A DNA stretch of 35,539 bases from a virus (taxonomy: Duplodnaviria; Caudoviricetes): IMG/VR virus record IMGVR_UViG_3300032170_000067, positions 1 through 35,539 of that record; one strand, given 5' to 3'. Below the pieces are notes generated by a model. It saw only the letters and a list, made by a program, of their open reading frames with translations. It made no database searches and was not told where the DNA came from. This document shows, piece after piece, positions 2,790 through 33,612 of the stretch. The position numbers and the translations under genes were made by a program. Numbering within the stretch: position 1 is the stretch's first letter; each line of letters starts with the position of its first letter.

Positions 2790-2792
2790 TTC

Positions 2793-4324: not shown

Positions 4325-4334
4325 TTAATCCTCC

Positions 4335-4601: not shown

Positions 4602-4618
4602 ACTATCTAAAGACGCGT

Positions 4619-4635
4619 GTTAACATATTGTTAAC
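4619..4635. promoter_or_regulatory. Perfect 7-3-7 palindrome GTTAACA-TAT-TGTTAAC, candidate operator
   Basis: Intergenic, directly upstream of the XRE gene. Confidence 0.5.
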
Positions 4636-4700
4636 TTTAAATAGGGTTAAATTTTAAATACCTTTCTTTGATTATTTTGTAAGAAATTTTAATTACTTCT

Positions 4701-9374: not shown

Positions 9375-9574
9375 TTTTCCTCCTTTTCTTTATATTTCCA
9401 ATCTTGTCTAAAAACTTTCTCATATTTGAGAAAAACTAAAAAACTATTTATATGTTTTCTGTCTATTACAACTTCAATTTCTTTCAAATCTAAGCCATCT
9501 ATTCCGTATATTCTTATTATTGCCTCTCTTTTATTTGCATTAAGGTCATTTAATTTTAATAATATTTCTCTCAT
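9371..9574 (-). CDS. Hypothetical protein
   Basis: ATGA overlaps on both sides. Confidence 0.7.
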   Translation of the reverse strand: MREILLKLNDLNANKREAIIRIYGIDGLDLKEIEVVIDRKHINSFLVFLKYEKVFRQDWKYKEKEEK

Positions 9575-10791
9575 TTTTTATTCCTTTCAATCTCCCCATC
9601 TACTAGCACAATGTCTGCAAATTTATCTATTGCTACTCTCTCTAACCAGATTTGATAATCAAATTTTTTCGCCATTTCTTCAATAATTCTCATGTTTTTA
9701 TCATCAAATAGATTAGCATCTGTAATTCTTATCACTGTGAGTTTTGGGTTAAGAATCATTGCCATTTTTATTGATATCTTTAATCTTTCACTATCGGCAA
9801 GTTGGTTAAATGGGATATCCTGAAGTTTTATTCCTTCTTCTTCAATTGTAAGATTTTTAAAAGGAATCTTCTTTTCTTTTAAAAGCTTTAATTTATTCTT
9901 ATCAAATTCTGCTATTTCATTAGTTAATCTTTTAGATTTTGATTTTTTGACGTCTGCTAAATATGATATTTCATTATATTTTTCTGCTTCTCTTATTTTT
10001 TCATTTATTCCTTCTGCCTTTTCTATTTTATCTCTGATTGTATTTAAATCTTTAGGACTTTTCCCTTTTATATCCTCTCTTAAATTTTTTACGGTATTTT
10101 CAAATCCCTTAATTGCATTCTTATAAACTTTTAATTTTTCTAGTGTTTCTTCTAGATAATACTGATCTACTTTAAGTTTTGAATTAAAATCACTTGCCTC
10201 TTCTAATTTTTTTGATAATTCTGCAATGCTTATAACTTTTTCAGGTAAATCTTTTTCAATTTTCAATCCCTTTAACTGACCTTCATAAGTTTTTATGTCT
10301 TTATTAACATCTGTTCTTTCATCATAAATTTGTTCCCTTTTCCTATTTATTTCATCTAATTTCTCTTTTAATCCAAAAGCTTTAAGAAGTAAATCTCGTT
10401 GTTCTTTAGAACCAAACATCATAAATTCTCGTGGATCAAAAGATAATTTACCCACAAAACTATTTAGCATAGTCTGTGGACTTTTGTATTGTATAGTTTC
10501 ATCTTCATTAGTTACTGTTAAATGACTTATTTTGTTATCTTTACAATATTTTTTTACTACAAAATTATCTATCTCCATAAACACTTCTGCTTTCCCCTGT
10601 CCTTTTCTAACAGGTTCAGTAATTTTTTTCTTACCTAAACCTTCCCCTCCAAGACACCATTCAATAGCATCTAAAGCTGATGTTTTACCTGAAGCATTCT
10701 CCCCAGCAATAACAATTACATTATCTTTGGGTTCTATCACCAACTCTTTTATTTTTTTAAAATTTTTTATTCTCAAAACTTTAATTTTCAT
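9571..10791 (-). CDS. SMC/Rad50-like ABC ATPase
   Basis: IKNFK, Walker A GENASGKTS, central coiled coil, signature-like LADSE, Walker B-like IRITD. Confidence 0.85.
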   Translation of the reverse strand: MKIKVLRIKNFKKIKELVIEPKDNVIVIAGENASGKTSALDAIEWCLGGEGLGKKKITEPVRKGQGKAEVFMEIDNFVVKKYCKDNKISHLTVTNEDETIQYKSPQTMLNSFVGKLSFDPREFMMFGSKEQRDLLLKAFGLKEKLDEINRKREQIYDERTDVNKDIKTYEGQLKGLKIEKDLPEKVISIAELSKKLEEASDFNSKLKVDQYYLEETLEKLKVYKNAIKGFENTVKNLREDIKGKSPKDLNTIRDKIEKAEGINEKIREAEKYNEISYLADVKKSKSKRLTNEIAEFDKNKLKLLKEKKIPFKNLTIEEEGIKLQDIPFNQLADSERLKISIKMAMILNPKLTVIRITDANLFDDKNMRIIEEMAKKFDYQIWLERVAIDKFADIVLVDGEIERNKK

Positions 10792-10813
10792 TACTTTTCC
10801 TCCTTAAATCAAC

Positions 10814-10829
10814 ATAGAATATCTTGTAT
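10814..10829 (+). other. Intact IS110 donor site AT-AGAATAT-CT-TGTAT (candidate attP; CT core 10823-10824)
   Basis: Left part identical to bridge RNA segment AUAGAAUAU; right part complementary to bridge RNA segment AUACAAGA; 12/14 identical to the IS621 donor as I recall it (ACAGTATCTTGTAT). Confidence 0.85.
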
Positions 10830-10847
10830 GTATATATTACTATTCTT

Positions 10848-11930
10848 TTAATCCGCTTCCTTTAAAATATTAAAAATATTTTTTATGATCTGTCTTTTTA
10901 AGCAACGAATTGCCCAAAGTTTGCTTTTGCCTTCCGATATCTTCTTTTTATAATAAGATTTAGATTTTTCTGGACCGTATCTGCTTATCTGGGTTAAAGC
11001 CACAGAATAAACAGCCATATTGAGTTTACGATTTCCATATCTATCAGTATATAATTTTCCACTATTACCTGACATTTTTCTAACTGGCGCAAATCCACCA
11101 TAACGAGCTAACTTGTCTTGGTTAGCAAAGCGATCTATTGTTTTAATCTCTACCATAATTTTACATGCATTAATCAAATTACAACCGAACAATTTATCTT
11201 TTAGAATCAAAATATGTTTAATACTACTTCCCAAATCATTTAAAATCTTATCTATTTCTTTAATATGATCTTTGGTTAAATTCAGATGTTCAATTAATCT
11301 TAAAATTGCATTACTCAAAAAATTTAATTCATTTTTAATTTCTTTTATATCTTCTTTGTAATATTTTAAGGATTTTTTTGAGAATATATTATTAAACTTA
11401 TTTTTGTAATTATCTCCATAATATTGATGTAAAAGATTATGTAAATGATTTTTAATTTTTCTTTTCTGCTTAACCAAACTCTCTCTTTCTTGTAGATGAA
11501 TATCTATCAATTTTATATTTTTTTGTTCTTCTGATACAACAGGACTAGCTGGTAATAATTCTTCAAATTTATTTAAAATAACTTTTCCTACCCTTTTAGC
11601 ATCTATGTAATCTGTTTTTTCTTTATGAACTGAATGCTTTCTTTCCCTATCAGTTAAGATTGGACTGATGTAATGAAGATTAAATCCTTTTTTATTGAGT
11701 TTCCGAGCTAGATGAAATCCATAACCATTGATATTTTCTAAACCTATTACTAAATTTCTTTTATTTCCTAAACATTTAAGCCATGAGAGGCAGATATCTA
11801 GTTTTTCATTATCAAATTTTAAATAACCAATTTCTTGTCCTAGTATATCCATAGCTACCGCTGTATGAGAATATTTATGTATGTCCATACCAACTACTAT
11901 TGAATTAATTGATAATGAATTATTGTTCAA
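10848..11930 (-). CDS. IS110-family bridge recombinase (DEDD RuvC + Tnp domain), candidate phage integrase
   Basis: GMDIHK (D), GLEN (E), KTDYIDA (D,D), FANQDKLARYGGFAP...SG (catalytic Ser), GNRKL; TTG start with AAGGAGG RBS. Confidence 0.95.
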   Translation of the reverse strand: MNNNSLSINSIVVGMDIHKYSHTAVAMDILGQEIGYLKFDNEKLDICLSWLKCLGNKRNLVIGLENINGYGFHLARKLNKKGFNLHYISPILTDRERKHSVHKEKTDYIDAKRVGKVILNKFEELLPASPVVSEEQKNIKLIDIHLQERESLVKQKRKIKNHLHNLLHQYYGDNYKNKFNNIFSKKSLKYYKEDIKEIKNELNFLSNAILRLIEHLNLTKDHIKEIDKILNDLGSSIKHILILKDKLFGCNLINACKIMVEIKTIDRFANQDKLARYGGFAPVRKMSGNSGKLYTDRYGNRKLNMAVYSVALTQISRYGPEKSKSYYKKKISEGKSKLWAIRCLKRQIIKNIFNILKEAD

Positions 11931-11956
11931 TTTTATACCTCCTTCTTGTATAATTA

Positions 11957-12116
11957 GAAAAGGAGAAAATCGATTAAAAACACTCTTGTATCAGAAGCCA
12001 CTAAGGCAATATTCTATTTAGTTTTTAATTTGATTCGAAGAGAACAGGGACAATCTGGAATAAGCTACTAGAGCAGAGTTATTTTGGTCTCCTGTTCTCT
12101 TCTTTGCTCCTTTTTC
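11957..12116 (-). ncRNA. Bridge RNA with target-binding and donor-binding loops
   Basis: Closing stem 12107-12114/11958-11965; 12-bp stem 12091-12102/12037-12048 enclosing guides AAAAUAACU and AUUCCAG; 9-bp stem 12021-12029/11973-11981 enclosing AUAGAAUAU and AUACAAGA; each loop capped by a GCy-yUAGU-rGC hairpin. Confidence 0.88.
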
Positions 12117-12150: not shown

Positions 12151-12951
12151 TTAAGGTTTCAATGGTTTATGTAATTTTATAGTTATCGGAGATGATTTGT
12201 ATAAAGGTTGAGCGATTATTGCTACAATTTCAGCACTCTCTTTAACTGGAACTGTTACCCATCCTCTCCTAGTTTGCCCAGAAGATATATCACCAAAACC
12301 AAAACATGGTTCCTTACTTTCATAAAATGTAGATTCATAGACATATCCATCTGAATCCTGAGCTTCATAATTAGAAATACTATAGTTTTGTTCTTCATTG
12401 CTTATATTTTTTACTTCTACATCAAATGCTATTAATCTAAAATCCCCTTTTGGTTGCATATGTTCACTTTTTGCTTTATAATCTTCAACACTATGAATAA
12501 TAAACTCACAGAAATCTTCAATAACTAATCTTTCATTAACATAAAAATCTTGTATAACCTCTTTAGTTTTTTCTTCTCCTACATCTTCTTCAACTGATTC
12601 TATTGTTGTTTCTTCTGTTTCTTCTAAAGTCGAAACTTCTTTTATAGTCTTACCAACATTTAAACTAAATACAATTAAAAAAATTACTACTAAACTTAAT
12701 AAAATTATTAGTGTTATATTTCCTATCTTTTCCTTTTTAGTTGCAAATCCTATTAAAGCACATATAGGACTTAATACTCCTACGGCAGCAGTAAAAATCA
12801 TCAATGAAACAAAAAACACCGCTATTCCAGAAAGACTTCTAATATCTCCTGAAAATGCAGTGCCAATGCCAAATATCATATATATAATAAATTCAGCAAC
12901 TAATGCAATTATTGATAAGAAAAAAATAATTAATGAATCTTTAAGTTTCAT
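12151..12951 (-). CDS. Membrane protein with DUF4352-like Ig-fold domain (possible superinfection exclusion)
   Basis: Three TM helices, acidic linker, FDVEVKN...QDSDGYVY...GQTRRGWVTVPV. Confidence 0.65.
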   Translation of the reverse strand: MKLKDSLIIFFLSIIALVAEFIIYMIFGIGTAFSGDIRSLSGIAVFFVSLMIFTAAVGVLSPICALIGFATKKEKIGNITLIILLSLVVIFLIVFSLNVGKTIKEVSTLEETEETTIESVEEDVGEEKTKEVIQDFYVNERLVIEDFCEFIIHSVEDYKAKSEHMQPKGDFRLIAFDVEVKNISNEEQNYSISNYEAQDSDGYVYESTFYESKEPCFGFGDISSGQTRRGWVTVPVKESAEIVAIIAQPLYKSSPITIKLHKPLKP

Positions 12952-13035
12952 TTTTCACCTAATTTTTTCAAATCTTAAATTTAAATGTTTTTCTATCATT
13001 TCCTTCGGCTAAGACAGTTTCACCATTTTTAATAA

Positions 13036-13395
13036 TTATTTTGAATGTTCAGGAAACCAAAATTCTATACATTCTTTCAAATAAGCATCTAATTTAACCC
13101 AATCTTCTTCAAATTCCATTTTCTGCAGAATAGGTATAATTTCATCTACGAATGGTTCATCAACAAATATCAATTTATCAGATAATTTTTTTATACCTTC
13201 TTTCATCAGTTCAATTGTTTTTGTTTTGTATAAATTTTCCAATTCCAATTCTTCTACTTCTTTTTCCAACTCAACGATTCTTAACTCCAAATCTACTATT
13301 TGTTTTCTACCAACAACATATCCAGAATAATAAGATAGAAAACAACCAACAAGTATTAATACCAATGTTATAGCAATTATAATTTTCTTTCTCAT
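13036..13395 (-). CDS. Membrane-anchored coiled-coil protein
   Basis: N-terminal TM/signal, heptads; GAGGTG RBS. Confidence 0.7.
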   Translation of the reverse strand: MRKKIIIAITLVLILVGCFLSYYSGYVVGRKQIVDLELRIVELEKEVEELELENLYKTKTIELMKEGIKKLSDKLIFVDEPFVDEIIPILQKMEFEEDWVKLDAYLKECIEFWFPEHSK

Positions 13396-14035: not shown

Positions 14036-14386
14036 TTATTTCTCTATCGGAAATCCAATTCTTTTTACGTGTCCCCAAATAGAAGTCAATAATTCAGCTA
14101 TAATAAATGAGAACGCAACAGTAGAGAATGCAGTTAAAGGTATAGTTATCATTTCAGAGAATTTCCAATAGATCATAGCAACTGGAATAGCACTAAATAA
14201 TCCCCAAACAATTACATAGGGAAGTATATTAGTTTGCAAAAAGTCTATTGCAGATTCCCAAGCAAATGCTTTAGACTTAATTGCTTCAGCTATACCTAAA
14301 ATTAGATCTACAAATATTGCTAATAGAATAGTGCTAATACCTATTAACAAATAATTTAGTTCAGTTATAAGTTCAGGAAACCACAT
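14036..14386 (-). CDS. Putative holin
   Basis: Three TM helices, directly after the endolysin. Confidence 0.65.
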   Translation of the reverse strand: MWFPELITELNYLLIGISTILLAIFVDLILGIAEAIKSKAFAWESAIDFLQTNILPYVIVWGLFSAIPVAMIYWKFSEMITIPLTAFSTVAFSFIIAELLTSIWGHVKRIGFPIEK

Positions 14387-14405
14387 TTTTATTTCACCTC
14401 CTTTT

Positions 14406-15272
14406 TTAATATTTAAAAATAATAAAATCTTTTCTTAGATCAGCATGTATAAAATTCTTTTTTCTATACAAACCAATCCCATTAAATTTTGTAAATCTTA
14501 AAATATAAAGAGCATATTTTATAATGTTCATGCCACTTGCCCTTGTGTCTGCTGCCATTCCTTTCATGTGATAACTTTCATTTGCTCCACCACAAATCTT
14601 ATTCCATTCAGGAGTTCTATAACCTGATACGACAATTATTTTATGTTTATTTTTATTAGGATATGGTTTGTTTATCAAATCTCTAACAATTTGAAGTTCT
14701 CTCGCTATTTCTTTAATACTATTAAAATACTCTTCTGGAGGCTCTATTTTTATCCCACTTCTGCTATTTGACCAAAATTCGCCCCATTTAAAATTTTCAG
14801 TAAGTTTTTTGTTAAAATCCATCTTCCAATCCAATTCATAAAGTTTATAATATTCTATTATTTTTCTTAAAGAAATATCATAAGTTATTCCAGTTGCGTA
14901 TCCACAAGCTTTTATTTGTTGACAAGCACAAATATAATTCCTACATTTTCTAACAGGTTCATATCTCTTTGCTTCTCCTATTAATTTTGCATAATCCTCT
15001 AAACTCTCTCCTGTTGAATCATATTTCCTGAATTTTGCTTGAACAGAAATATATTGTCCATTTATATACTCTTTGGTCCATAAAAGTTGGTATTCGTATC
15101 CACAGGTTTTTGTCCATTTATAGCCAAATAAGTTATTACCAGGAGCATGTTTACCAAAACCACTTTCATGACAAGCTTGTGCCATCATCAAAGAAGGTAA
15201 AATATTATACTGTTTACACAACTCTAATACTTTTGATTTAATTTTATTTATGAATTGCATAATTTTGTTCAA
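14406..15272 (-). CDS. Endolysin: GH73 glucosaminidase/muramidase + peptidase M15 domain
   Basis: AQACHESG, NNLFG, FRKY, GYAT; then SGYRT...SYHMKGMAAD...FIHADLR. Confidence 0.9.
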   Translation of the reverse strand: MNKIMQFINKIKSKVLELCKQYNILPSLMMAQACHESGFGKHAPGNNLFGYKWTKTCGYEYQLLWTKEYINGQYISVQAKFRKYDSTGESLEDYAKLIGEAKRYEPVRKCRNYICACQQIKACGYATGITYDISLRKIIEYYKLYELDWKMDFNKKLTENFKWGEFWSNSRSGIKIEPPEEYFNSIKEIARELQIVRDLINKPYPNKNKHKIIVVSGYRTPEWNKICGGANESYHMKGMAADTRASGMNIIKYALYILRFTKFNGIGLYRKKNFIHADLRKDFIIFKY

Positions 15273-15745
15273 ATTTTAAATTTATTAAATTTATTCATAA
15301 AATTTTTACACCATTTATAAAGTTCTTCCATGCTTCTATCTTGTTTTGTTGTATTACATCTTCGACAAATTATCCAAATATTATCTAAAGTTAAAATTTT
15401 TTTGTTATCTTTTCTATCTAATGTAGGTGAATTACTTTGTGCTTTTCCTTTTCCAAATTCCCAATCTAATTTGATATTATAAATAGGACAGTATTTAGTA
15501 TCTTTTGCTATGGGATATAAACTTTTAACTGCTGTAAATAAGATTTTGCAATATCTTTTATGATCTCTTATAGTTCTTGAACACCAAGCTTTTATTGGAT
15601 TATTTCTGCGATATTCTCTTTGATATTTTATTTCACATTTTTTACATCTACCAGATACACCAAATTTATGTCTACCTTTAGTATCTGGATAGAATTTATT
15701 TATTGATAATTTTTTTTTACAAATACTACAAATTTTCTTTTTCAT
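15269..15745 (-). CDS. HNH-superfamily (homing-type) endonuclease with N-terminal zinc finger
   Basis: CSIC...CKKC; SPTLDRKDN...DNIWIICRRCN. Confidence 0.7.
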   Translation of the reverse strand: MKKKICSICKKKLSINKFYPDTKGRHKFGVSGRCKKCEIKYQREYRRNNPIKAWCSRTIRDHKRYCKILFTAVKSLYPIAKDTKYCPIYNIKLDWEFGKGKAQSNSPTLDRKDNKKILTLDNIWIICRRCNTTKQDRSMEELYKWCKNFMNKFNKFKI

Positions 15746-15808
15746 TTTAACCTCCCTATCAGGTTAGGCAAGAAATAAGATAGGGTTATTCCTTGCCCAT
15801 ATTATTTA

Positions 15809-16165
15809 TTAATAAATTACTTGAATATAAGCAGCTATTCCATTTAATATTGTGAAAGCAATAAGAATCATATAAAAAGGAAATTTATCAGGTTTCTTTT
15901 CTAATTCCACATCTATATTCTTTTTATAATCCTTAAAATTTTCTTTTATATTTTTAATTCTTACATTATTTATATTCTTTACATTATTTTTTAATGTATT
16001 AATATTTTGTTTATTCAACTGAATCTGAGTTAGATTTTTTTCAACAGAATTCATTTGGTCACAAAGTTCATCTACCTTTTCCTTTATGTGTTTAACTGTA
16101 TTTTCTATTACTTCTAAACTTGGATTGTCTTTTGGTAGATTTTTCTTTTTCTTTCCTTTTACCAT
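15809..16165 (-). CDS. Coiled-coil protein with C-terminal TM helix (lysis-associated)
   Basis: Heptads then a hydrophobic tail; first gene of the lysis cassette. Confidence 0.6.
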   Translation of the reverse strand: MVKGKKKKNLPKDNPSLEVIENTVKHIKEKVDELCDQMNSVEKNLTQIQLNKQNINTLKNNVKNINNVRIKNIKENFKDYKKNIDVELEKKPDKFPFYMILIAFTILNGIAAYIQVIY

Positions 16166-16189
16166 TATTCCTCCCAGTTTAATTTTGCA

Positions 16190-16217
16190 AATAAAAAATC
16201 TCCTTTTTAGGAGATTT
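16190..16217 (-). terminator. Intrinsic terminator after the tail genes
   Basis: AAATCTCCT/AGGAGATTT stem plus T-run. Confidence 0.7.
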
Positions 16218-16250
16218 AAGTGATTTAGATTTTAGTTTTATTCTTTTTTA

Positions 16251-16481
16251 TTATTCTTCTTCCTCAAAACTTTCACTAATAGATTTTATAAATCTTAAAA
16301 ATAAATTTACAACCCAAAAAAGGTCAATAAGGACCTCTTCGGTTAAAACATCTTCCAATTTAAACTTTTTGTCCTTTATTTTTTTATTTGTAATTTCAAA
16401 ATTATTTAAAGCGCCATTTAATTTATCTTTGTTTTTTTCTAAATATTTGATTATTTTTTTCCGATCATTCAAAGAAAACAT
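16251..16481 (-). CDS. Hypothetical protein
   Basis: AGGAG RBS. Confidence 0.7.
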   Translation of the reverse strand: MFSLNDRKKIIKYLEKNKDKLNGALNNFEITNKKIKDKKFKLEDVLTEEVLIDLFWVVNLFLRFIKSISESFEEEE

Positions 16482-16489
16482 TTTTTCTC

Positions 16490-16855
16490 CTAATATTTAT
16501 TTAATGAACACCCTGGATCATCATAACTTATAGGTGGCTGAAAAACATAATTATAAATAGCAATCCATTTTTGTGCAAATACAACAATGGCTGGAATACT
16601 TGAACTTGAAGTAGTTTTTTTAGAAGTTGAAGATTTTGTTGTTGTAGAGCTACTTGAACTACCTCTTTGTGTTGCTGTAATAGTTTTTTGAGTTCCTGCA
16701 CTTTTTCCACCAGCCCCAACTGATTGTCTTTCTATAATTTTTTCAATAATTTCCTTTTTAGGAACAGTTGGATAAGTTATAACTAATGGAGTTCTGGTCA
16801 GTAGTAATCTTTTTCTATCTATTTGAAATCCTCTTATTATTCCTTTTATTAACAT
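16490..16855 (-). CDS. Hypothetical protein with Ser/Thr-rich tract
   Basis: TAATG coupling to the tail-tip gene. Confidence 0.6.
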   Translation of the reverse strand: MLIKGIIRGFQIDRKRLLLTRTPLVITYPTVPKKEIIEKIIERQSVGAGGKSAGTQKTITATQRGSSSSSTTTKSSTSKKTTSSSSIPAIVVFAQKWIAIYNYVFQPPISYDDPGCSLNKY

Positions 16856-19800
16856 TAAAGCACCTCGATTATACTTTTCATTATATTTGGAGTTGTTTCT
16901 GCTTCAGTTTCAAGTGTTAGTTTACAAACTCCCTTTTCATAAATAGTTTTAATTATTCTAAAAATTGGTAACTCTTTAATACCTAAAAATTTAACATTAT
17001 TATTTGGCTCAATTTCAACTGGCTTAATTCTTCCACCATTCTTATCAAAGATAAAATTATCAATTGAACAACTTAACTGATATCTTGGTTTTTTATGAAA
17101 ACTAAACTGTGCTTCACCAATCGCTTTTGCACCTACATCAGAAATTCCACCTAAACCAATAACGTGTTCTTTGTCAAATGGAATTTCTGAATTTTCATCA
17201 GTAAGTTCTATTTCCTGTCTTTTCATCATCTCATCAAAATAAACTAAATAAATTTTATTAAAATAACTTACAGAATTTTCCTCAAAGACTAAATTTTTAA
17301 TAGGGCAAATATAATCAATTGCCTCCCTATCTACTTCAAAAAATTTAACTTTTCTATCTTTTGTAATAGTCCATTCGTAATCTTGATATGCTAAAACATC
17401 TTCTAAAATATTTAAAGGTGCTGTTCTATCCCTATAATAAGCAGAAGTTAATTCAAAATTGCTTCTAATCCAATCAATATAAAAAGTAAATGCTGAATTA
17501 GTTGCAATTTCAAACTGAATGTATTTGATAGTATCTCTTGTTTCTATTGGAAAGTTATTTAAGTCAATTATTTTTTCTTGCCAAGCATCTTTATAATAAT
17601 ATTTAAAATTATCAAAATCCCCTGTTATGTTATAATATTCTAATTGTATATAATCTAATGCTCTTGCTATTACCATATCAACGGAAAGTTCAGTTCCGCC
17701 ATCAATTGAAGCATAAACAATTGTGCCTACTCGTCTGATTTTTACAGTATGCCAAGATATGTCTTGTGTATATGCTTGGCTCTCTAAAGCTGGGTCATAA
17801 TCTAAATACATCTCACTACCATATATATAAAACCATATAGACTCAATTTCGCCTATTAAACCAAGTTCAATACACACTGTAGTACCACTATCTGTGCTAT
17901 CTTGTTTAAAATCTACTTCAATTTCAAAATCATCATTAACACCTGATAACCAATCAGTATCAGGATATCTGTATCCACCACCTCCTGATGAAGTAATCTC
18001 TAAAACCCCACCAGTTATAATAGCATTATCTAAATTCCACTTTCCATCATCTTTAGAAAAATCAAATTCATAAATATTACTTGTAATATTAATTATTTTC
18101 TCTATCTTCTTATTTCTCAAAAAACCTAAATTATAATAATAAACATAATCCCAATAAGATTTTCCCAAATTAGCAGAATCATCCATACCAAATCTGAAAT
18201 ATTTATCAGTTGTAATTTGGGTTTCTCCACAAAGAGCAAAAACTCCATCAATATATAAAACCCAAAAATTATTTTTCATAGTAAGCCACAGTTCTCTATA
18301 TTTAGTCATATCTATTGAATAAGAATTACCAGCATCATACCAATCCTCAATTTTAGTTGAATAAATTGCTAATACTACACCTGCTATTCCATCTCTTAAT
18401 ATAAGTTGGGTTGTTTTCCCAGTATTGTCACATTTCATTCTTGTAATGATAACATTTCCTTTTACATTATGTCCCATATCAGTTCTTTGATAAACACAAG
18501 TATTTGCTGCAATTTTATTAATTGTCAAAATTCCATCACTAACGGAACCATAATCAGTTCCAATTAAAGTCCAAGCAGGTTCAGCATTTGGTGGTTCTTG
18601 ATCTGCTTCATATTGACAACTCCACTCTGGCTCAAACTGATACCTGCTATTTTCTCCAAATTTTACTTTTAAGATATCTCCTGTTATAGTTGAACGAACC
18701 CAAAATCTAAATAAATTTTTATTTTGTAAGTTTTGGATAAATGATAATGTTTTTGTTAGATTTTTTACTGGAGAATATTTAAAATTGTCATAATCTCCTG
18801 TGCATCCTTCCATTGTTAAGTATATATAATCTATTGCTCTTTCAGTCCCATAGTTCCAAGAAATCTCAGAACCACTATCTATTCTACAATAATAAGTTGT
18901 TCCTACTCGTCTGATTTTAAGTGTATGCCAATTTGTATCATCAACGAAAGATGTTGAATCTTTTAAAACTCCATCATAAACAATTCTGAAATCGTCAGTA
19001 GAACCACGAACATCAAAACGAATTGCATCTGTTGTATCCCCCACCAAATAAACTCTTACTTCAAAACCCTCAATTGAAGTAGTATCTTGTTTAAAATCAA
19101 CTTCAATTATAAAATCATCATCAAGACCAGACAGCCAGTTCACATCTGGATATCGTAAACCATAACCACCAGCAATAGTAATATCTAAAACTCCACCAGA
19201 AATGGTAGCATTATTTAAAGTCCATTTCTCATTATCAAAACTAAAATCAAAAAAATAAGATTTATTAGAACCTACAATTGTTTTAATTGAATGGTTTCCT
19301 TCTTTAACAATAGAATTCTCAAGTGAAAAATTAAGACCACCATTCCAACCATCTAAACTTTCACATAACTCAATATCTTTGTAATTGAAACAGTCTTGAA
19401 TTAAAGAAGTATTTAAATCTAATTTTTGTGTGTGATTAAGAAGTAAATCCTTTAAAATGTTTGAAGCATTTATTTCATCATCAGAAGTTAGTAATTTTAG
19501 ATTTTCAAGTTGTGCAAAATATTTATCTGTTGAAATAGTTGTATTAGAAATGCATTCAATCCTGAATTGCAAATATCTTTTCTCGTTATAAATATATACG
19601 CCTTCTTCAGTAGAATATACCGAAGAATATTTAAAATTATCATATTTTCCTGTTCCCTGGTCTATATAAAGTCCTATATCACTAATTTCTCTTTTTGTTC
19701 CATAGTTCCAACTGAGTTCTGCACCACTGTCTATTGAAAAATAGAGTATTGTTCCTATTCGGCGAATTTTTGCAGTATGCCAACTTGTATCTTGTGTAAA

Positions 19801-20766
19801 TGATTGTTGTTTTTTTGCTACACCCTTATAGTGAATTCTCATAAGAGAATGATATAAATCAAAACAAATAGGAGCATCATCTCCTACCAAGTATATTAGC
19901 ATTTCCATACCTTCTTCAACGGCATCATCTTGTTTGAAATCTGCTTCAATTATGAAATCATCATTTGCTCCTGATAACCAGTAGACATCTGGACTTCTTG
20001 TTCCACCCTTCTTCCATCCTGTTTCAGTTATTTCTAAAAACCCCCCACTAATTGTTGCACCGTCAAGTTCCCATTTCCCATCATCAGAGGAGAAACCAAA
20101 AGTATATATAATTTTATCAATTTCTGTTTTGACAATATCTAAAATTACATCTTCATCTATTTTTTTAGCATTTGCCCAACTTTTTTCAGTATATGGATTT
20201 GAGTGGTTTTCATCTAAGGTAACCAATTTTGTAGTAAAGTTAGCAGGTTGATTAAGAAGTATTCTTGCTTTTAATCTTTCTATATTCTCATCAATTTTAA
20301 TTTCAAATAATCCATCTTCTTCTGCGTTATAACTACGTTGCAATAAACTAATTTTAATTCCTTTATCTTCATCTGCTCTACTATAACCATATAAAATTTC
20401 ATCGCTTTGTTTATTATTTTTTTCGTTCCAGTTTTTAAATTCTCCAATATCATCTAAAACAAAAGTTTTTTTAATCTTTTTATTTTTAAAATCAATAAGT
20501 AATCCAGATGCTTTTAGATTGTAGTTTAAATTTCTATAATCTCTTTGAAATTCTGTAATATAACCTTGCCAGATAAGTTTGGAAAAATTATAAAGATAAA
20601 TATTGTTAAATAGCCCCACTTTATGATTTTGAAAGTAAGGATTTTCATTAAGTTTAAAATTTAGTTCAGAAGCTCCACCGTAGTGAATTTTTCGGAAATT
20701 TAGATTTTCTACTTTTTGAGGAAAATAATTGTTTTGGTTAGTATCAATAATTCGGAGTAATAACAT
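16855..20766 (-). CDS. Tail tip / baseplate hub (Tal-like) protein with repeated lectin-like domains
   Basis: Second gene after the tape measure; hub-like N-terminus (LIWQGYI); three ~157-aa beta-rich internal repeats. Confidence 0.75.
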   Translation of the reverse strand: MLLLRIIDTNQNNYFPQKVENLNFRKIHYGGASELNFKLNENPYFQNHKVGLFNNIYLYNFSKLIWQGYITEFQRDYRNLNYNLKASGLLIDFKNKKIKKTFVLDDIGEFKNWNEKNNKQSDEILYGYSRADEDKGIKISLLQRSYNAEEDGLFEIKIDENIERLKARILLNQPANFTTKLVTLDENHSNPYTEKSWANAKKIDEDVILDIVKTEIDKIIYTFGFSSDDGKWELDGATISGGFLEITETGWKKGGTRSPDVYWLSGANDDFIIEADFKQDDAVEEGMEMLIYLVGDDAPICFDLYHSLMRIHYKGVAKKQQSFTQDTSWHTAKIRRIGTILYFSIDSGAELSWNYGTKREISDIGLYIDQGTGKYDNFKYSSVYSTEEGVYIYNEKRYLQFRIECISNTTISTDKYFAQLENLKLLTSDDEINASNILKDLLLNHTQKLDLNTSLIQDCFNYKDIELCESLDGWNGGLNFSLENSIVKEGNHSIKTIVGSNKSYFFDFSFDNEKWTLNNATISGGVLDITIAGGYGLRYPDVNWLSGLDDDFIIEVDFKQDTTSIEGFEVRVYLVGDTTDAIRFDVRGSTDDFRIVYDGVLKDSTSFVDDTNWHTLKIRRVGTTYYCRIDSGSEISWNYGTERAIDYIYLTMEGCTGDYDNFKYSPVKNLTKTLSFIQNLQNKNLFRFWVRSTITGDILKVKFGENSRYQFEPEWSCQYEADQEPPNAEPAWTLIGTDYGSVSDGILTINKIAANTCVYQRTDMGHNVKGNVIITRMKCDNTGKTTQLILRDGIAGVVLAIYSTKIEDWYDAGNSYSIDMTKYRELWLTMKNNFWVLYIDGVFALCGETQITTDKYFRFGMDDSANLGKSYWDYVYYYNLGFLRNKKIEKIINITSNIYEFDFSKDDGKWNLDNAIITGGVLEITSSGGGGYRYPDTDWLSGVNDDFEIEVDFKQDSTDSGTTVCIELGLIGEIESIWFYIYGSEMYLDYDPALESQAYTQDISWHTVKIRRVGTIVYASIDGGTELSVDMVIARALDYIQLEYYNITGDFDNFKYYYKDAWQEKIIDLNNFPIETRDTIKYIQFEIATNSAFTFYIDWIRSNFELTSAYYRDRTAPLNILEDVLAYQDYEWTITKDRKVKFFEVDREAIDYICPIKNLVFEENSVSYFNKIYLVYFDEMMKRQEIELTDENSEIPFDKEHVIGLGGISDVGAKAIGEAQFSFHKKPRYQLSCSIDNFIFDKNGGRIKPVEIEPNNNVKFLGIKELPIFRIIKTIYEKGVCKLTLETEAETTPNIMKSIIEVL

Positions 20767-22014
20767 TTAATCACTCCTCAAAAATTTATATCTTGCTTTA
20801 TAATTAAGCCAAAAAGACATCTGATCTGTAATTTTATTTTCTGTGATACTATCTGAAACTACAACGATTCGAACTTTTCCTTTAGGAAGATAAACAAAAT
20901 TACCCCTATCATAGTTATTATTATCATTTTCATCTTGTAGATATGTGCTGAGTATCTTTTTTATAGTATCTACTTCATAAATTTCATTTTGAGAAATAAT
21001 CCCAATTTCACTTTTTCTAATTCCAAAACTTTCATCTATCGGAATTAATGCTATATAATCAATTCCAATTCTGTCTGATCCATTACCAATTAATTGAATT
21101 TCATAATTGGAATTAGTTGCCTGTGTTTCTGAATAAGGAACTTGAATTTCCCCAAGTTCAATTAATCGCCATAAATTAGTATCTTCTGCTTTAAATGAAT
21201 ATAAATCATTATATAAATCACCATATTTTAATCTTATTTTTATAACATCATCACTTGCACTTTCACTTTCACATCTAACTAGGACCAAATATCTACCTTT
21301 ATAATTTGCATTATTTAATGAGAATTTAATGTAAGTAGCCCAATCTGCTGTAGGATAAGCTATATCTGAATATGCTTTATTTCCTCCTCGACAATCTGCG
21401 TCAGCAGTTAAAGTCATATTAGTTAAAGTCTGTGATTCGGCTTCTAATACTGGTAAAAAGTTAGTGATATCTGAAATTAATTTCTCACTTTTTAAACCGT
21501 AATAAATATTGTAAATATCATCAGCAGATAATAATTTCATAAAGAATTCTGTAAAAGCAGAAATGTCTCCTTTTGTAGCAGAAATATCAAAATAATTAGG
21601 TAATGTTTTTGTTGCGTGAGGAGTTTCTGAATCACCTATATTAAGCAATTCACTATATCCAAAATTATCTACTAATAAACCAATATTAATCCAAATCTGA
21701 TTATTAATTGGTAATTTTGAAAAATCTCTTGTTCTTATTTCGTAGTTTAAAATTTCATAGAAAGTTGATTTTGTGGTTGCTGGTTTAATTTCTAAAATGC
21801 AATCTTTGCTCTCATCTTTAATTTTGTATAATTCATTAAATAAAGTTTTCAGATTTGCTAATGTGTTATCCGGAGAAGTTCCTTTAATTGAAATATCTAA
21901 ATTAATTACCTTCGAATTTTGATTTTTCAAAGAGTAAGGAAAAGAAATTATTGTTGTTGCATAAAAACCTGAATTTATAGATAATTCATTAATTTTAATT
22001 ATAGTATCAGCCAT
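20767..22014 (-). CDS. Distal tail (Dit-like) protein with inserted carbohydrate-binding-like domain
   Basis: Directly after the tape measure; LEAES...IDYIALIP segment typical of CBM folds. Confidence 0.65.
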   Translation of the reverse strand: MADTIIKINELSINSGFYATTIISFPYSLKNQNSKVINLDISIKGTSPDNTLANLKTLFNELYKIKDESKDCILEIKPATTKSTFYEILNYEIRTRDFSKLPINNQIWINIGLLVDNFGYSELLNIGDSETPHATKTLPNYFDISATKGDISAFTEFFMKLLSADDIYNIYYGLKSEKLISDITNFLPVLEAESQTLTNMTLTADADCRGGNKAYSDIAYPTADWATYIKFSLNNANYKGRYLVLVRCESESASDDVIKIRLKYGDLYNDLYSFKAEDTNLWRLIELGEIQVPYSETQATNSNYEIQLIGNGSDRIGIDYIALIPIDESFGIRKSEIGIISQNEIYEVDTIKKILSTYLQDENDNNNYDRGNFVYLPKGKVRIVVVSDSITENKITDQMSFWLNYKARYKFLRSD

Positions 22015-23681
22015 TACATCACTTCCTTTCCTTGAAATAATGATATTTGTCTTGCAAGTCTTTTTATGAATTCTTCGTCTCTCATTAATTGACTTGCCAT
22101 ATTAACATCGCCCATATTGTAATTATAATTAACCACACTTTGAGGTTTTCTAAGCAAAGCAATTAAATTTTTCTGCATCTCAGAAGTTAAAACAGCTTCT
22201 CCACCATGTGTTAAAATTCTTTGAGTTTTTGGAATTATTCCACCGAATTGAAAACCTGCACCTTCTTCCGGTCCACCTCTTCTTTTATATGTGTAAGTTA
22301 TTGTTCTATGAATATCTTTTGCAGCTTCTTTTAAATGTTGAACTCTTCCTAATGTATCATCAATATTGTCTTCGAATTTAATTTTTGGTGGATTTTCTTC
22401 TAAATATTTTGCACTTTTGTTAAATTCTTCTACTTGCTTCCTTGATTCTTCTATCGCTTTTAACACTTCTGGATTACGTGATTTAATTCCTTCTATCAAA
22501 TCTTCCCACGCTTCTCTACTTGCCTTTGCCCCTTTAGGAATGACTGCTAACATAAAGTCAGAAAGTGGAAGAATTAATTTAGTATCAAGTATATCACCTG
22601 CAATAAGCATATATAACTTGAGGTCCAAAACAAAATTTATAGCACCTTTTAATCCCTCTTTTAAGGTGTCTGCAAAAGTTATTGCTGTTTCCTCAGCAGT
22701 TCCAATTTCACCACTAACTCCTCCGAACGCTTTCTCTAAAGTTTTAACAGCAAGTTTTGCTATTCTCCAATCCTCACCAACAAACGCTCCAATAAAATCC
22801 ATAATCCAATCAAAAGCACTTTCAATTGCCGGATTAAGAATATTATCAATCCACCCTTGAACATTTTTGACTACTCCTTCCCAGCCCCCAAATGCTTTTG
22901 ATGCTTCATTAATTGCACCAACAATTTTTTCACCAATTAATGCTCTTAAATCTGACCAAATAGTAGAAAAAATACCTCCAACTTCTGCTAAAGTTAATAT
23001 ATCTTTACCTAATTTTTCAGCATTTTCTCTTGCAATTTTCATTGCGTAAGTTTGGAATCCAAGACGTTTTTCGTTTTCAGTTAATTGAGAGGAAGTTTTG
23101 CCTAAAGTTTCTGCATACCATTCATAGGCATCTGAAACTTGAAAAACAATCCCTAAATTATCCAAAATCATTTTTGATTGTCTACCCAAACCCATAGATA
23201 AACTCTCAACCATATAGTTAATATCCATTCCTGTTGCTTTTGCTGTGCGACGAGCGATTTCCATTACTTCATCAAAAATACTTGTATCTAATCCTAACAA
23301 CAACATTTTGTTAGCAGTTGCAAGTAAATCTACTTCTGCAATAGTTCCTCGTGTTGCTTTTTTCATATCAGCTAACAGTTTTTTAGAACTTGCTCCAGCT
23401 GCTTCTGCTAACGATTTAAAGGACTTTTTCAATGAGAGAGATTTTTGCCCTAAAATGATTAATTCTTTACCAACTTTGATTATGGCTTTTGCCATCTTTG
23501 CGGCAGCAATAACAACAGCAGCACTAATAACAGCTTTCCAAATAGTTGATACCCTTTTTCCAATAGTTGCGTTCGTTTTCTCAAACCTTTTTACAGATTT
23601 ATCTGCTTTATTAATTCCACTTAGAAAACCTGTGGCATCTGCTTCCATCCTTGTGATTAATTCACCTGTTTGTCTCGCCAT
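22014..23681 (-). CDS. Tail tape measure protein
   Basis: Ala-rich helical; LDNLGI motif; C-terminal FQFGGII...HGGEAVL; follows the chaperone. Confidence 0.9.
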   Translation of the reverse strand: MARQTGELITRMEADATGFLSGINKADKSVKRFEKTNATIGKRVSTIWKAVISAAVVIAAAKMAKAIIKVGKELIILGQKSLSLKKSFKSLAEAAGASSKKLLADMKKATRGTIAEVDLLATANKMLLLGLDTSIFDEVMEIARRTAKATGMDINYMVESLSMGLGRQSKMILDNLGIVFQVSDAYEWYAETLGKTSSQLTENEKRLGFQTYAMKIARENAEKLGKDILTLAEVGGIFSTIWSDLRALIGEKIVGAINEASKAFGGWEGVVKNVQGWIDNILNPAIESAFDWIMDFIGAFVGEDWRIAKLAVKTLEKAFGGVSGEIGTAEETAITFADTLKEGLKGAINFVLDLKLYMLIAGDILDTKLILPLSDFMLAVIPKGAKASREAWEDLIEGIKSRNPEVLKAIEESRKQVEEFNKSAKYLEENPPKIKFEDNIDDTLGRVQHLKEAAKDIHRTITYTYKRRGGPEEGAGFQFGGIIPKTQRILTHGGEAVLTSEMQKNLIALLRKPQSVVNYNYNMGDVNMASQLMRDEEFIKRLARQISLFQGKEVM

Positions 23682-23863
23682 TCTTTAATATCATCACTCC
23701 AATCAAGAATTTTTCTTTTAGGTATAATTTCTTCACTTAATTTATCAATGAAAAATAAAATTTCACTTAGTTTTAGATAACACAGTTCCCAGGGTTTAAT
23801 GCCAAAATGCTTTAACAAAATATATTTAATCTCTAATAATCCCTGGGAACTTTCTATTTTTTT
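23657..23863 (-). CDS. -1 frameshift extension of the tail assembly chaperone (gpT-like)
   Basis: Slippery A-AAA-AAA at 23863-23857; the -1 frame is open: IESSQGLLEIKYILLKHFGIKPWELCYLKLSE...KQVN*. Confidence 0.8.
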   Translation of the reverse strand, partial: KKIESSQGLLEIKYILLKHFGIKPWELCYLKLSEILFFIDKLSEEIIPKRKILDWSDDIKEWRDKQVN

Positions 23864-24135
23864 GGTTTTATGCCAAAAGTAAGATGTTTTCCTACTTTGT
23901 CAACTATATCCATCAGCTCAGAAGTAGATGGCCTGATTGCCTTGATTTTTGGATCAGTTAATTTGACTAATAAAAGAATTGCATCAATTATTTCTTGTGG
24001 ATGTTTAAAGAATTCTGCTGGTTCCTTACTGTGTTTGCTAAAAGCGTAAATTATTGGAAAACCAATATCTCCTGGTGGGTCGCAAGGAATTTCATATTCT
24101 TTTCCTTCAACCGTAATTTTAAAAATTTTATTCAT
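23854..24135 (-). CDS. Tail assembly chaperone (gpG-like)
   Basis: Between tail tube and tape measure; ends CCA AAA AAA TAG. Confidence 0.8.
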   Translation of the reverse strand: MNKIFKITVEGKEYEIPCDPPGDIGFPIIYAFSKHSKEPAEFFKHPQEIIDAILLLVKLTDPKIKAIRPSTSELMDIVDKVGKHLTFGIKPKK

Positions 24136-24146
24136 TTAACCTCCTT

Positions 24147-25109
24147 TTATATATATGCGGTTTCTACTGCATTACTTGCAGTTACAGTTATTATTTCTCC
24201 AGTTGCGGGTTTAATTGCTTTTGCAGTACAAAGAATTTCTAATTCTGTTGGTTCTGGGTCAAGAAATTTCTGAACTGCTAAATGTTTTAAAGAAGGTAAT
24301 TCAATTTTAAGTCCTTTCAAATCAGCATCAGTTCCATATGTTTGTTCAACTGTTAAAGACCCATCATCAAGCGCTGCAACTGGAGTTGTTCCTCCACCAT
24401 AAAGAACATTTTTGTAATGGTCTGAATCTACAAACTTCAATCTGAATTCAACATCAATATCAAAACCTAATTCAGTTAGGTCATTTCTAACAAAATCTTC
24501 TGTTTGACTATCCGGTGTAAGGTTTCTTAGAATAGTTATCCTAAAGAAACAAATATTTGCTATTACTACTCCGTCAAGTTTATAGAGTCCTTTGCCGTGA
24601 TAAAACATATATTTATCATTTGCTTCATAAGTAGGCGTTGCAGGTGATGCCTCAATACCTGGTGTTATTCCATAAAAACTAACTTCAATTGATATTGGTT
24701 GTCCAGAGTTTCCCTCTATGATTACCTGTTCTATTTTACAATCGGTAATCCTTTCAACCGTGTCTAAGTATTTTTCAATAGTTAGCCAAGGAATTGTATT
24801 TGCGTGTATGATTGTATGAACAGTTGGTCCTGTTCCCACAGGTGTATCTGCGCCCAAAACCCAAGCAAGTATTGCTGCTGCTAAATCTGGTCTTGCAAAA
24901 AACGAAAAAGTTCCATCCGGTTTATGAATATTTTTTACAATATTTGAAACCATTTGGTCACCTTCAAGTTCTCTGAAAACACCGATTTCCTGTAACATTT
25001 CAATAGTTTCTGCTGCTGATAATCTGACAAATTTATCAGGGACAATTCCAGTTCCTTTCGCTGTTTGTTTTGCTATACCTAAGTATCCTTCAGATGTTCT
25101 TTTTCCCAT
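24147..25109 (-). CDS. Major tail tube protein
   Basis: Position, size, GYLGIAKQTAKGT N-terminus, beta-rich. Confidence 0.8.
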   Translation of the reverse strand: MGKRTSEGYLGIAKQTAKGTGIVPDKFVRLSAAETIEMLQEIGVFRELEGDQMVSNIVKNIHKPDGTFSFFARPDLAAAILAWVLGADTPVGTGPTVHTIIHANTIPWLTIEKYLDTVERITDCKIEQVIIEGNSGQPISIEVSFYGITPGIEASPATPTYEANDKYMFYHGKGLYKLDGVVIANICFFRITILRNLTPDSQTEDFVRNDLTELGFDIDVEFRLKFVDSDHYKNVLYGGGTTPVAALDDGSLTVEQTYGTDADLKGLKIELPSLKHLAVQKFLDPEPTELEILCTAKAIKPATGEIITVTASNAVETAYI

Positions 25110-25264
25110 TATTTTTCACCTCCTTTTTTCTTTTCAAATTTTACAATATCCTTTCTTTCAAGATCTTTTTCAACACCCATAAAAGTCCCTCCTGGTTCTA
25201 TTACTCCTTGTTTAGGAACCCAAATAGGAAAAAAACCTAAATATCTTACTTTAATTTTTTTCAT
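25109..25264 (-). CDS. Small hypothetical protein, 51 aa (not in ORF track)
   Basis: MKKIKVRYLGFFPIWVPKQGVIEPGGTF...; GGAGG RBS; overlaps both neighbours. Confidence 0.65.
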   Translation of the reverse strand: MKKIKVRYLGFFPIWVPKQGVIEPGGTFMGVEKDLERKDIVKFEKKKGGEK

Positions 25265-25677
25265 ATACTTACCTCCTTTTTAATGTCCAAATAGAAGTTA
25301 ATAACACTAACTGGATTTTTTCTATCTCTTAAATAATCGACAGCGACTGATATAATTTTTGAAAAATCACAACTTCCGCCAAGAGATGAATTTGCTTGTA
25401 ATTTGTTGGTAACTAATTCAATAAAATTGTCAACATCTTGCTGAACACTTTCCGAGCCAGTTAATTTAAGATATACCTTAACAGCCACATTATAAACTCT
25501 ATCTAAACTATCAATTTCACTTGGAATAAATTCACTTATTCCTAAAGTTGAAATTGTGCAAGCAGGAAGATCAGAAGGAATTCCTTCTTTACCTGGCTCA
25601 TAACCATAAACTCCTTTGAATTCTGTAATTTCTTCTAAAATTGTTTTTAATTGTGTTTTTATATTTATTATGCTCAT
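25261..25677 (-). CDS. Tail terminator/completion protein
   Basis: Position and size; LPACTI, SLGG motifs. Confidence 0.65.
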   Translation of the reverse strand: MSIINIKTQLKTILEEITEFKGVYGYEPGKEGIPSDLPACTISTLGISEFIPSEIDSLDRVYNVAVKVYLKLTGSESVQQDVDNFIELVTNKLQANSSLGGSCDFSKIISVAVDYLRDRKNPVSVINFYLDIKKEVSI

Positions 25678-26033
25678 CTAAAAATTTTATCTATTGCTTT
25701 TTGAAATAAACGAATTATATTATCTATATTATTTTTTAATGCGTTTGTCATAAAATATTTTGCTTTTATTTTTTTAGTTCCAAGTTCCTGATAAATTGTA
25801 TAATGAACTTTAGAAGCAATTTCCCCTATAATTTTTGGACCTACAACTTTAGCTGGTTTTCCGTGTATATTTCTTCTCATATGTCCAGTTTTATGTGGGG
25901 CATCTTTAACACTATCTTTCCAAACAAGACTAACAGATTTGTTCATTGGATCTATAAGCAATCTTAAAGCCCTTTTATTATCAAACAGTTTTCTTAGTTC
26001 TTTTGCTCCTTTTAATTCCCATTTTATTTTCAT
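25674..26033 (-). CDS. HK97 gp10-like neck protein
   Basis: APHKTGHMRRNI...YQELGT...FM. Confidence 0.8.
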   Translation of the reverse strand: MKIKWELKGAKELRKLFDNKRALRLLIDPMNKSVSLVWKDSVKDAPHKTGHMRRNIHGKPAKVVGPKIIGEIASKVHYTIYQELGTKKIKAKYFMTNALKNNIDNIIRLFQKAIDKIFR

Positions 26034-26590
26034 ACTCTTACTTTCTTATAAGGGTCTAACCACTTCAAAACAAAAGGCGGCATTTCAGTCCCTGGTAGAG
26101 TAACAACAAAACCTTCATCAAATGTTTCGCTGTAATCTAATGTGTGTCTTTTAATATAAAAATGAACTAATGCAACACAAGACTGTTTTATAGGTTCTGG
26201 AATTGTTGTTGTATCTGCACCGTAACCAACGTTATAAGTAATTTCTACATTTTGATAACCCTTAGTAAAAACTAATCCATTCAAAACTATTTTTCCAAGT
26301 TTTTCATACAAATAGTAATCGTCCTCATTAATAGTTTCGCCATTTATTGTTAATGAAGTAATTGAATTAATTGGATAATAATCTACCCAAAGAACAGTAG
26401 TTCCATCACCATCATATTCCTCAGTTAAATCTCTATTTATTACTTTTTTGTGTAAGTGGTCTTCAATAGCGACTGAATATGCATTAATTAATGCTTCAAT
26501 TGCTATATCTTTGCCAGTATCATCCAAATCAATACCCATATCACTCTTAACATCGTTGACTGCACACAACGCATATTCTGAAAGAGCCAT
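26030..26590 (-). CDS. Head-tail connector/adaptor (gp6-like)
   Basis: VK..MGI, YPINSITS, YNVGY...IPEPIKQ, LDPYK. Confidence 0.8.
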   Translation of the reverse strand: MALSEYALCAVNDVKSDMGIDLDDTGKDIAIEALINAYSVAIEDHLHKKVINRDLTEEYDGDGTTVLWVDYYPINSITSLTINGETINEDDYYLYEKLGKIVLNGLVFTKGYQNVEITYNVGYGADTTTIPEPIKQSCVALVHFYIKRHTLDYSETFDEGFVVTLPGTEMPPFVLKWLDPYKKVRV

Positions 26591-26600
26591 ATCTCACCTC

Positions 26601-26885
26601 TTATTTATTTTTTAGTTCTTCCAACTTCTTGTCTTTTAATGGTTCAAGTTTCTTTTCTTCAACTTCTTCTACTTTCTTCAATTCAACTTTCTTTTCCTTT
26701 TCTGGTTCTGGTTCAGGTCTCCAACCTAATAGTTTAAACTCTTCTGGAAAATCTTTTAGTAACTGTTCTGCTTTTTCTTCAGAAACTGTTATTACTTTCT
26801 TTTTAGTAATAAGCACATCTTTTTTTGTTACTGGATCATAACCAGAATAATAATCACCAATAAATCTAATTCTTTTCTTCTTCAT
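26601..26885 (-). CDS. Small charged protein after the capsid gene (start revised to ATG 26885)
   Basis: AAGGAG RBS before MKKKRIRFIG. Confidence 0.65.
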   Translation of the reverse strand: MKKKRIRFIGDYYSGYDPVTKKDVLITKKKVITVSEEKAEQLLKDFPEEFKLLGWRPEPEPEKEKKVELKKVEEVEEKKLEPLKDKKLEELKNK

Positions 26886-26980
26886 CAAAACTCCTTTCTT
26901 TTTTTTGATTTGGGTGATTGTCAGAGCAACCACCCAATTATTACAATTTCCTTTGTAGTTTTACTCTGATAAAACTATTT

Positions 26981-28216: not shown

Positions 28217-28229
28217 ACTGATTTCCTCC

Positions 28230-29336: not shown

Positions 29337-29360
29337 TTAAACCTCCTTTTTTAGTATTTT

Positions 29361-32899: not shown

Positions 32900-33185
32900 T
32901 AAAAATCGGATAAATTTTTAAAATATTTATAAGATAATCATCACAGTTCTATCTTTTTAGCGATTTTTTACCCATACCCCCTTTCTAAAATACCTGATAA
33001 AATAATATGCCAAGTTTACATAATGTATATTATCGGAACTTGTTTTCATTAATATATAAATATAATCTAATTAGGATTTATATCAAATTTATATAATATG
33101 ATATCCTTTTATCAGGATTTATATTAACCCATTATTCACCCTTTAAAAGATGAATACATAATATTCACCCTTAAAATAGTGAACA

Positions 33186-33599: not shown

Positions 33600-33612
33600 A
33601 TTTTCCTCCAAT

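Follow-up and report, generated by a model that had tools for sequence, protein, structure and literature searches.

Does the IS110-type recombinase encoded by a tailed phage belong to a mobile element that merely resides in the phage, or does it integrate the phage itself? In temperate tailed phages the attachment site, attP, classically lies just 3' of the recombinase gene, between the lysis or accessory genes and the replication block, and this int-attP module is common to otherwise different phages. The window, by which we mean the whole 35,539-nucleotide stretch that was analyzed (IMG/VR record IMGVR_UViG_3300032170_000067, positions 1 to 35,539), carries at this place a gene for an IS110-family recombinase, a predicted bridge RNA and a donor site. 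An initial annotation proposed that the donor is attP, that the entire phage is the mobile unit and that the bacterial attachment site, attB, is programmed by RNA.

The window represents a tailed phage of 29% GC with all genes on the minus strand, and annotation of its ORFs gives a full set of head, tail, lysis, packaging and replication genes. The late genes (holin, endolysin, tape measure, tail tube, capsid, prohead protease, portal, and large and small terminase) occupy 14036..33611 (minus strand). Accessory membrane/lipoprotein genes (12151..13395, minus strand), in which there is no left-donor arm, separate the lysis genes from the bridge RNA, and a gene for an SbcC/AAA_23-type ATPase (9571..10791, minus strand) opens the recombination-replication block. 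None of the 40 ORFs scanned was an Inovirus gene (Zot, coat, or rolling-circle replication). The 1303-aa tail protein at 16855-20766 contains internal repeats with 67–75% DNA identity and has a weak laminin-G match. Two methyltransferase genes and a PAPS-reductase-domain gene at 1407-5471 suggest DNA modification against host restriction.

The contig had been taken to be a circle, and this was upheld in part. Its ends are a 261-bp repeat of 91% identity within one ORF (1-261 versus 35279-35539), probably two strain variants that close a 35,278-bp circle. A second contig of 35,333 bp encodes an identical recombinase, and its length (35,333 = 35,539 − 261 + 55) would fit the same circle plus a 55-base assembly overlap. 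There is no exact terminal repeat, and IMG/VR classes the record as linear and 36% complete. We regard a circular phage genome as likely.

The proposed integrase is a 360-aa IS110-family bridge recombinase (10848..11930, minus strand; Pfam PF01548 and PF02371). It is intact, as first described: the acidic residues D16, E65, D107 and D110 do not vary across an alignment of 28 sequences, and S287, which aligns with the serine motif of IS621, is at least 90% conserved. The score against NCBIfam NF033542 is 134.4, just below the cut-off of 140. Comparison with the copies in a second phage (L001) and on a chromosomal contig (L002) gave dN/dS values of 0.12–0.15, by which measure the recombinase is under purifying selection. 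In the likely source run, the cassette has the depth of the flanking phage DNA (about 17), which is single-copy behavior.

Searches for relatives of the recombinase gave 80 of 125 confirmed metagenome loci, together with 7 loci in genomes. In the 90% cluster, five of the six near-full-length members (two of them this genome) lie on contigs longer than 10 kb; among the listed hits at 43–55% identity for which a length was given, the figure is 2 of 109. No close recombinase (E 1e-40) was present in 87 genomes of the class to which the genome of L087 belongs (Candidatus Hydromicrobium, class Humimicrobiia by NCBI), assemblies that are incomplete and lose repeats. Searches of viral_contigs with the recombinase alone or two alignments, with the SbcC-like protein plus an alignment, and with a pair of lysis-region proteins yielded no relatives, and none of 50,697 annotated phage records matched, so the slot is not comparable with that of integrase-bearing relatives. 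At one of the loci (L005:234-1475), a short tyrosine recombinase gene is followed directly by a gene for a 68%-identical IS110 recombinase, and no bridge RNA separates the two.

The initial annotation saw neither a tyrosine nor a serine integrase in the window, and profile searches agree. A six-frame search gave no match to serine resolvase (PF00239), and PF00589 gave one sub-threshold match (15.4 bits against a cut-off of 27.1) to a 275-aa ORF without annotation in the recombination block. No divergent repressor was seen; the single HTH_3 gene is on the same strand as all other phage genes, and L001 has two such genes. A directionality factor or excisionase is not evident in the window.

Upstream of the recombinase gene is the predicted bridge RNA (11962..12110, minus strand; ends approximate). 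The two loops recognized initially were borne out by the fold, with a z-score of −3.0 and none of 200 shuffles folding as well, and by double-sided changes in 17 of 29 pairs among eight relatives, a control that leans favorable because the structure was derived from the same related rows. Rfam has no match anywhere in the window. Guide sequences were read in the window and in 8 of the 87 loci, with L030 left out; most relatives, at 41–49% identity, have other loop sequences and fall outside the guide pattern used. These loci (among L007-L085) form a large compact IS110 clade with the same inverted right arm and a different donor, often adjoining a GGCA[TC]CC motif.

The register of the guides was set by compact relatives whose guides fit their own junctions: the seven bases plus CT directly before the small hairpin of the target loop give the left junction. 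By this rule the left target guide agrees with the junction at all seven bases in L003, L006 and L020, and the right target guide at four of four in L006 and L020 and three of four in L004 (L013 is cut by contig ends). In the window, the left target guide with its core is therefore AATAACT plus CT (12075..12083, minus strand), and the right target guide (12055..12060, minus strand) specifies CT-GGAA and is followed by the handshake dinucleotide AU; the target is AATAACT-CT-GGAA. The left target guide had previously been misread by two bases as AAAATAA-CT, and the junction strings proposed from that register were consequently wrong. The donor loop holds the left donor guide AGAATAT (12009..12015, minus strand) and the right donor guide (11985..11991, minus strand), which specifies CT-TGTAT and is followed by the handshake dinucleotide AG. 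The handshake bases of the donor loop match the target in full for two of six distinct target guides (three of eight rows, window included), so that covariation is partial. By analogy with IS621 (PMC13626964), handshake pairing would rise from two pairs before strand exchange to four after it, and these bases would favor insertion.

The donor, AGAATAT-CT-TGTAT (10816..10829, plus strand; core CT at 10823-10824), fits both donor guides, is flanked by short ACATA/TATGT inverted repeats and lies 18 bp past the stop codon of the recombinase gene, where it had been pointed out initially. The window contains no other exact copy; by chance, 0.0016 copies would be expected per window, and 4e-6 no farther than 100 bp from the stop codon. 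The window has no exact target; the nearest sequence, with one mismatch, is in the capsid gene. In compact relatives, the right-donor arm follows the gene and the left-donor arm stands 50–59 bp before the target guide, both inverted. The inversion of the donor is thus a trait of the lineage, and its reading as a sign peculiar to the phage did not hold, since ordinary insertion sequences among the relatives share it.

The arrangement in front of the RNA is different. In four compact insertion sequence relatives the left-donor arm upstream of the RNA has zero or one mismatch in 13, whereas the best match within 150 bp upstream of the window RNA has five mismatches in 13, and the arm is likewise missing in L001, L003 and L014 (best four to five of 13 within 150 bp). 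The cassette therefore has no second end of its own. The hybrid junctions that bound compact IS110 elements, at both ends of a 1.3–1.6 kb unit, are absent from the window, in line with the original observation that the donor is whole. The rest of the left-donor arm lies across the core, in 10791..10815 (minus strand), with a ribosome site and the start codon of the next gene, a segment that L001 has in common beyond the core.

The donor is thereby placed directly in front of the ribosome site of the SbcC-like gene (10791-10850), and excision could couple to early gene expression through the donor junction ahead of this gene. In compact relatives the donor junction creates a promoter with TTGACA (L006, L013 and L020); this element is degenerate in the two phages, reading TATACA or TTAACA. 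There was no promoter-like call at the donor junction on the gene strand, and the promoter scan found 14 sites against 11.2 expected. Because the left-donor arm is not beside the RNA, the latter is not switchable by circle formation through a junction promoter. The AAGGAG ribosome site that follows the left-donor arm (10795-10805) resembles an AAGGAG at the start of the bridge RNA (11931-11962); it is possible that this is a trace of where phage DNA came between arm and RNA.

The expectation that related phages keep recombinase, RNA and donor at this locus was realized in L001. This phage differs from the window in its tail, lysis and recombination genes and has a YqaJ/RecT pair; its SbcC-like protein, in the same place, is 31% identical. 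It nevertheless carries the same cassette at 92% identity, with identical guides and a whole donor, in the same slot. Homology between the two phages runs for about 45 bp through the core, as far as the ribosome site and start codon of the gene that follows. An insertion sequence would break at the core, and this argues for a shared int-attP module. All four guides are unchanged between window and L001, although synonymous sites differ by 0.26. Contigs that cross the donor were found in two further runs, X2 and X8 (one each). The recombinase tree places L002 as the sister of the window (89/93), in a six-row clade (100/99) that also holds L001. An RlpA-like lytic transglycolase of the window (5468-5851) is 79% identical in L001 and about 70% identical at the DNA level to genes of three class genomes (G083, G085, and G086), a similarity that may provide a weak additional link to the host.

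L002 provides the integrated state. It matches the window at 92.5% as far as the core and then continues as host genome, with lysine 5,6-aminomutase genes and Hsp20-like and ECF-like genes in the chromosomal part. The junction, AATAACT-CC-TGTAT, joins left target to right donor; its core is CC instead of CT, which may reflect a synonymous serine codon in that host. The phosphatase gene so joined is truncated and ends FLTNNS-CMLIIIYF-stop. A 13-base match at one pre-specified position has a probability of about 7e-8. Five of the 87 genomes match the chromosomal DNA of L002 at 80–99%, and in three the match begins at the core. G083, G086 and G087 each contain one AATAACT-CT-GGAA, in an orthologous HAD-IIA phosphatase gene at the motif FLTNNSGR, where the empty site reads AATAACT-CT-GGAAG. 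The empty target is thus present in three of the five genomes of the group; the assemblies of the other two are without the gene. The 13-base target was rejected as evidence of a host by itself: its occurrence is near chance, with a copy in 45 of the 87 genomes, and none of 25 inspected lies in the FLTNNSGR motif. As the 13-mer alone is common, the evidence for the host is that the breakpoint falls on the target. L002 begins inside the recombinase gene, and its bridge RNA and upstream side lie beyond its end. The likely source run of the window yielded no phosphatase gene, and there was no spacer-like match linking the window phage to G083-G087. Weak matches to the window on G087:C16 were discarded as a candidate prophage; they represent a degraded island, with no related intact prophage. 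This region (G087:C16:20000-62000, L290-L292) holds terminase-small-like, tyrosine/serine recombinase-like and restriction-type genes and has one small ORF in common with the window.

Relatives of the cassette with other target guides had been anticipated, and L003 supplies one. L003 and L014 encode recombinases with 77–84% amino acid identity to that of the window (77% for L003), and their guides specify AATTATA-CT-GATA. G083, G085, G086 and G087 carry this site uninterrupted in a TadE-like gene. In L003 the junction AATTATA-CT-TGTATG lies in the TadE-like gene, and the 127 bases beyond the join are 100% identical to G085. L002 joins at the target specified by the window guides and L003 at that of its own guide, so the guide predicts the landing site twice; both break at the core equivalent to 10823-10824, the position named from the window. 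Elements of the L003/L014 clade must be larger than the cassette, as the left-donor arm is missing before their RNA. Between the recombinase gene and the right-donor arm of L003 (1477-2321) is a gene for a staphylococcal-nuclease-type lipoprotein, and nuclease-type genes like it recur in island-like regions of G086 and G087.

The search for prophage junctions thus succeeded for one type, left target/core/right donor (L002 and L003), and did not find the other, left donor/core/right target. The second junction would read CAACATAGAATAT-C[T/C]-GGAAG. A viral scan for it gave two hits, both chance occurrences in unrelated viruses. Over the host gene, four runs showed only the uninterrupted gene, with no loose end at the core, in contigs, which drop rare forms. 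Among 120 of the about 580 stretches matched by a 14-base donor-arm scan, none continued as right donor or matched window DNA, and the two that continued as GGA did not match the target. No homologue of the SbcC-type protein was present in the 87 class genomes, and a protein search with the truncated phosphatase gave no candidate.

With the parts, the target, one junction type and the sharing of the module in hand, we consider it quite probable that the phage inserts its entire 35-kb circle into the HAD-IIA phosphatase gene at AATAACT-CT-GGAA by means of the bridge recombinase, with the donor as attP. The empty target, the hybrid junction at its core, the donor of L001, and the guide and junction of L003 all support the proposal of an RNA-programmed attB. 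Of the three findings that the initial annotation named as contrary to it, none was encountered, in searches that retrieved no close phage relative without the cassette. That the whole phage is the moving unit is a step further, for no phage genes are seen beyond the recombinase of L002 and there is a single junction type; we judge it probable to a similar degree. By the chemistry of IS621, the bridge RNA would pair with both sites, donor and target, and the whole circle that carries the donor would go in by strand exchange at CT. Because the donor is the only site of the phage, the circle would enter complete and split the phosphatase gene, leaving a prophage with the recombinase gene at one end and the SbcC/AAA_23-type ATPase gene at the far end. 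Excision would be carried out by the same complex, and this is the weakest step of the scheme. The system may have originated from a compact IS110 of the lineage when a phage genome came between the left-donor arm and the bridge RNA.

It is unlikely that the cassette is instead a passenger, an IS110 in circle form that was caught once and then spread between phages by ordinary recombination, the phage being lytic or episomal and L002 a compact sibling. Compact relatives with both hybrid junctions do occur in the lineage (L006 and L020; in part L004 and L013), most homologues are on contigs of 1–2 kb, and L002, whose upstream side is unseen, could itself be compact. No repressor switch is evident, and IS110-like passengers of tailed phages have been published, as in phage Omega (accessible text of PMC3706429). 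However, a passenger would leave hybrid junctions (that of Omega has defined limits), whereas here the donor is whole in two phages and homology runs across the core; nor is there a left arm before the RNA in the window, L001, L003 or L014. L002 nests between the two phage copies in the tree, and the four guides have stayed the same despite the synonymous divergence of window and L001. An enzyme active on this donor would in any case insert the whole circle.

Two further readings were weighed. Integration might be one-way, with clean excision rare and a return by single-strand copy-out that uses the donor loop only, or with dead-end insertions decaying to cargo islands. The handshake gain from two to four pairs points in this direction, IS621 forms single-stranded circles by donor-only recognition (according to the accessible part of 10.64898/2026.08.31.748434), and L003, with its nuclease passenger and an upstream ABC-permease end, looks like the end of an island. 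We nonetheless think this distinctly unlikely: whole donors in the window, L001 and contigs from two more runs indicate that joined donors are common, for which a cycle of excision offers a simple account, and the integration step is in any event common to this reading and to the best explanation. That the recombinase serves mainly another end, the disruption of the host phosphatase or the rearrangement of phage modules, with lysogeny incidental, appears very improbable. Both targets do fall within conserved motifs of coding sequence, and the genes are cut short by insertion; yet the window contains a single exact donor but no exact target, and two guides match unrelated genes, as would be expected if conserved motifs are reliable landing sites.

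Returning to integration of the whole phage, we lean, by a narrow balance, toward a broader picture: a family of temperate tailed phages of sediment Actinomycetota in which a bridge recombinase has replaced a protein-specified integrase. The int-attP module would be swapped between phages, the landing gene changed by about 11 RNA bases, and the whole 35 kb moved in and out against the handshake bias and above the reported 20 kb, with excision setting the old insertion sequence junction before the replication genes as a possible switch. If integration occurs as proposed, an insertion sequence machine has been taken over as a phage integrase, the attachment site of a tailed phage is set by an RNA guide, and the host range of lysogeny could shift by a few bases. 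Since a prophage must exit on demand, the phage would constitute a natural test of the reversal of bridge recombination, an open matter for IS110 biology and for bridge-editing tools. It would also offer an enzyme that selection has maintained together with a large cargo and a single-copy target, its donor, target and RNA being defined to the base.

The closest mechanistic parallel is IS621 and its IS110 group. From the accessible text of PMC11208160 and PMC13626964, the likeness extends to the DEDD and serine enzyme, the upstream two-loop RNA, the CT core, the 7+4 target, the handshake AU in the target loop and the hybrid junctions formed on insertion. The donor here differs in being whole inside a 35-kb phage, with the left-donor arm away from the RNA, and in being inverted relative to the gene (left target/right donor at the 3' end of the gene), the last difference applying to the whole lineage. 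IS621 is described as excising poorly in the available part of PMC13626964. Another parallel is provided by the cargo-bearing IS110 loci of a recent preprint (bioRxiv 10.64898/2026.08.14.744561), which, in its accessible text, have ends that enclose multi-gene cargo, some of it phage-derived; many of the loci are without another integrase. That cargo is mostly plasmid DNA; the words 'prophage', 'capsid' and 'virus' do not occur in the main text as accessible, and no whole-unit mobility was seen there for elements above about 20 kb. Here, in contrast, the cargo is a complete virion-encoding genome in the joined state.

As to phages, the cassette occupies the slot of the classical int-attP module in both the window and L001, comparable to the Cluster J example in the accessible text of PMC3706429. 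Unlike that module, it comes with no tyrosine or serine integrase, arm sites or excisionase that we could find, and the choice of site resides in RNA. The initial annotation was aware of no phage that integrates in this manner. Filamentous phages do use IS110-type enzymes: in the available portions of the reports, PivNM/Irg integrates the Neisseria phages Nf and MDA-phi, whose prophages are flanked by a CT duplication (PMC4471427, PMC7058167), and the filamentous phage Af1 of Acinetobacter has an IS110-type enzyme (PMC11209303). These systems resemble the one proposed here in that the phage is integrated by an IS110-type enzyme of its own and its ends bear a CT duplication. Nf and MDA-phi are single-stranded filamentous phages of 7–8 kb that use abundant dRS3 repeats, and no guide RNA is mentioned in the accessible text (PMC4471427, PMC7058167, PMC11209303), whereas the phage described here is tailed and double-stranded, its site is single-copy and intragenic, and the guides agree with the junctions. 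Our literature search, outside which most subscription journals lay, found no tailed phage with a bridge-RNA integrase, and none is described in the accessible text of PMC9778887, PMC3706429, PMC13604230 or 10.64898/2026.01.12.699009. Integration by an IS110-type enzyme is already known from filamentous phages; what is likely to be new here is a tailed phage whose integrase would be guided by RNA.
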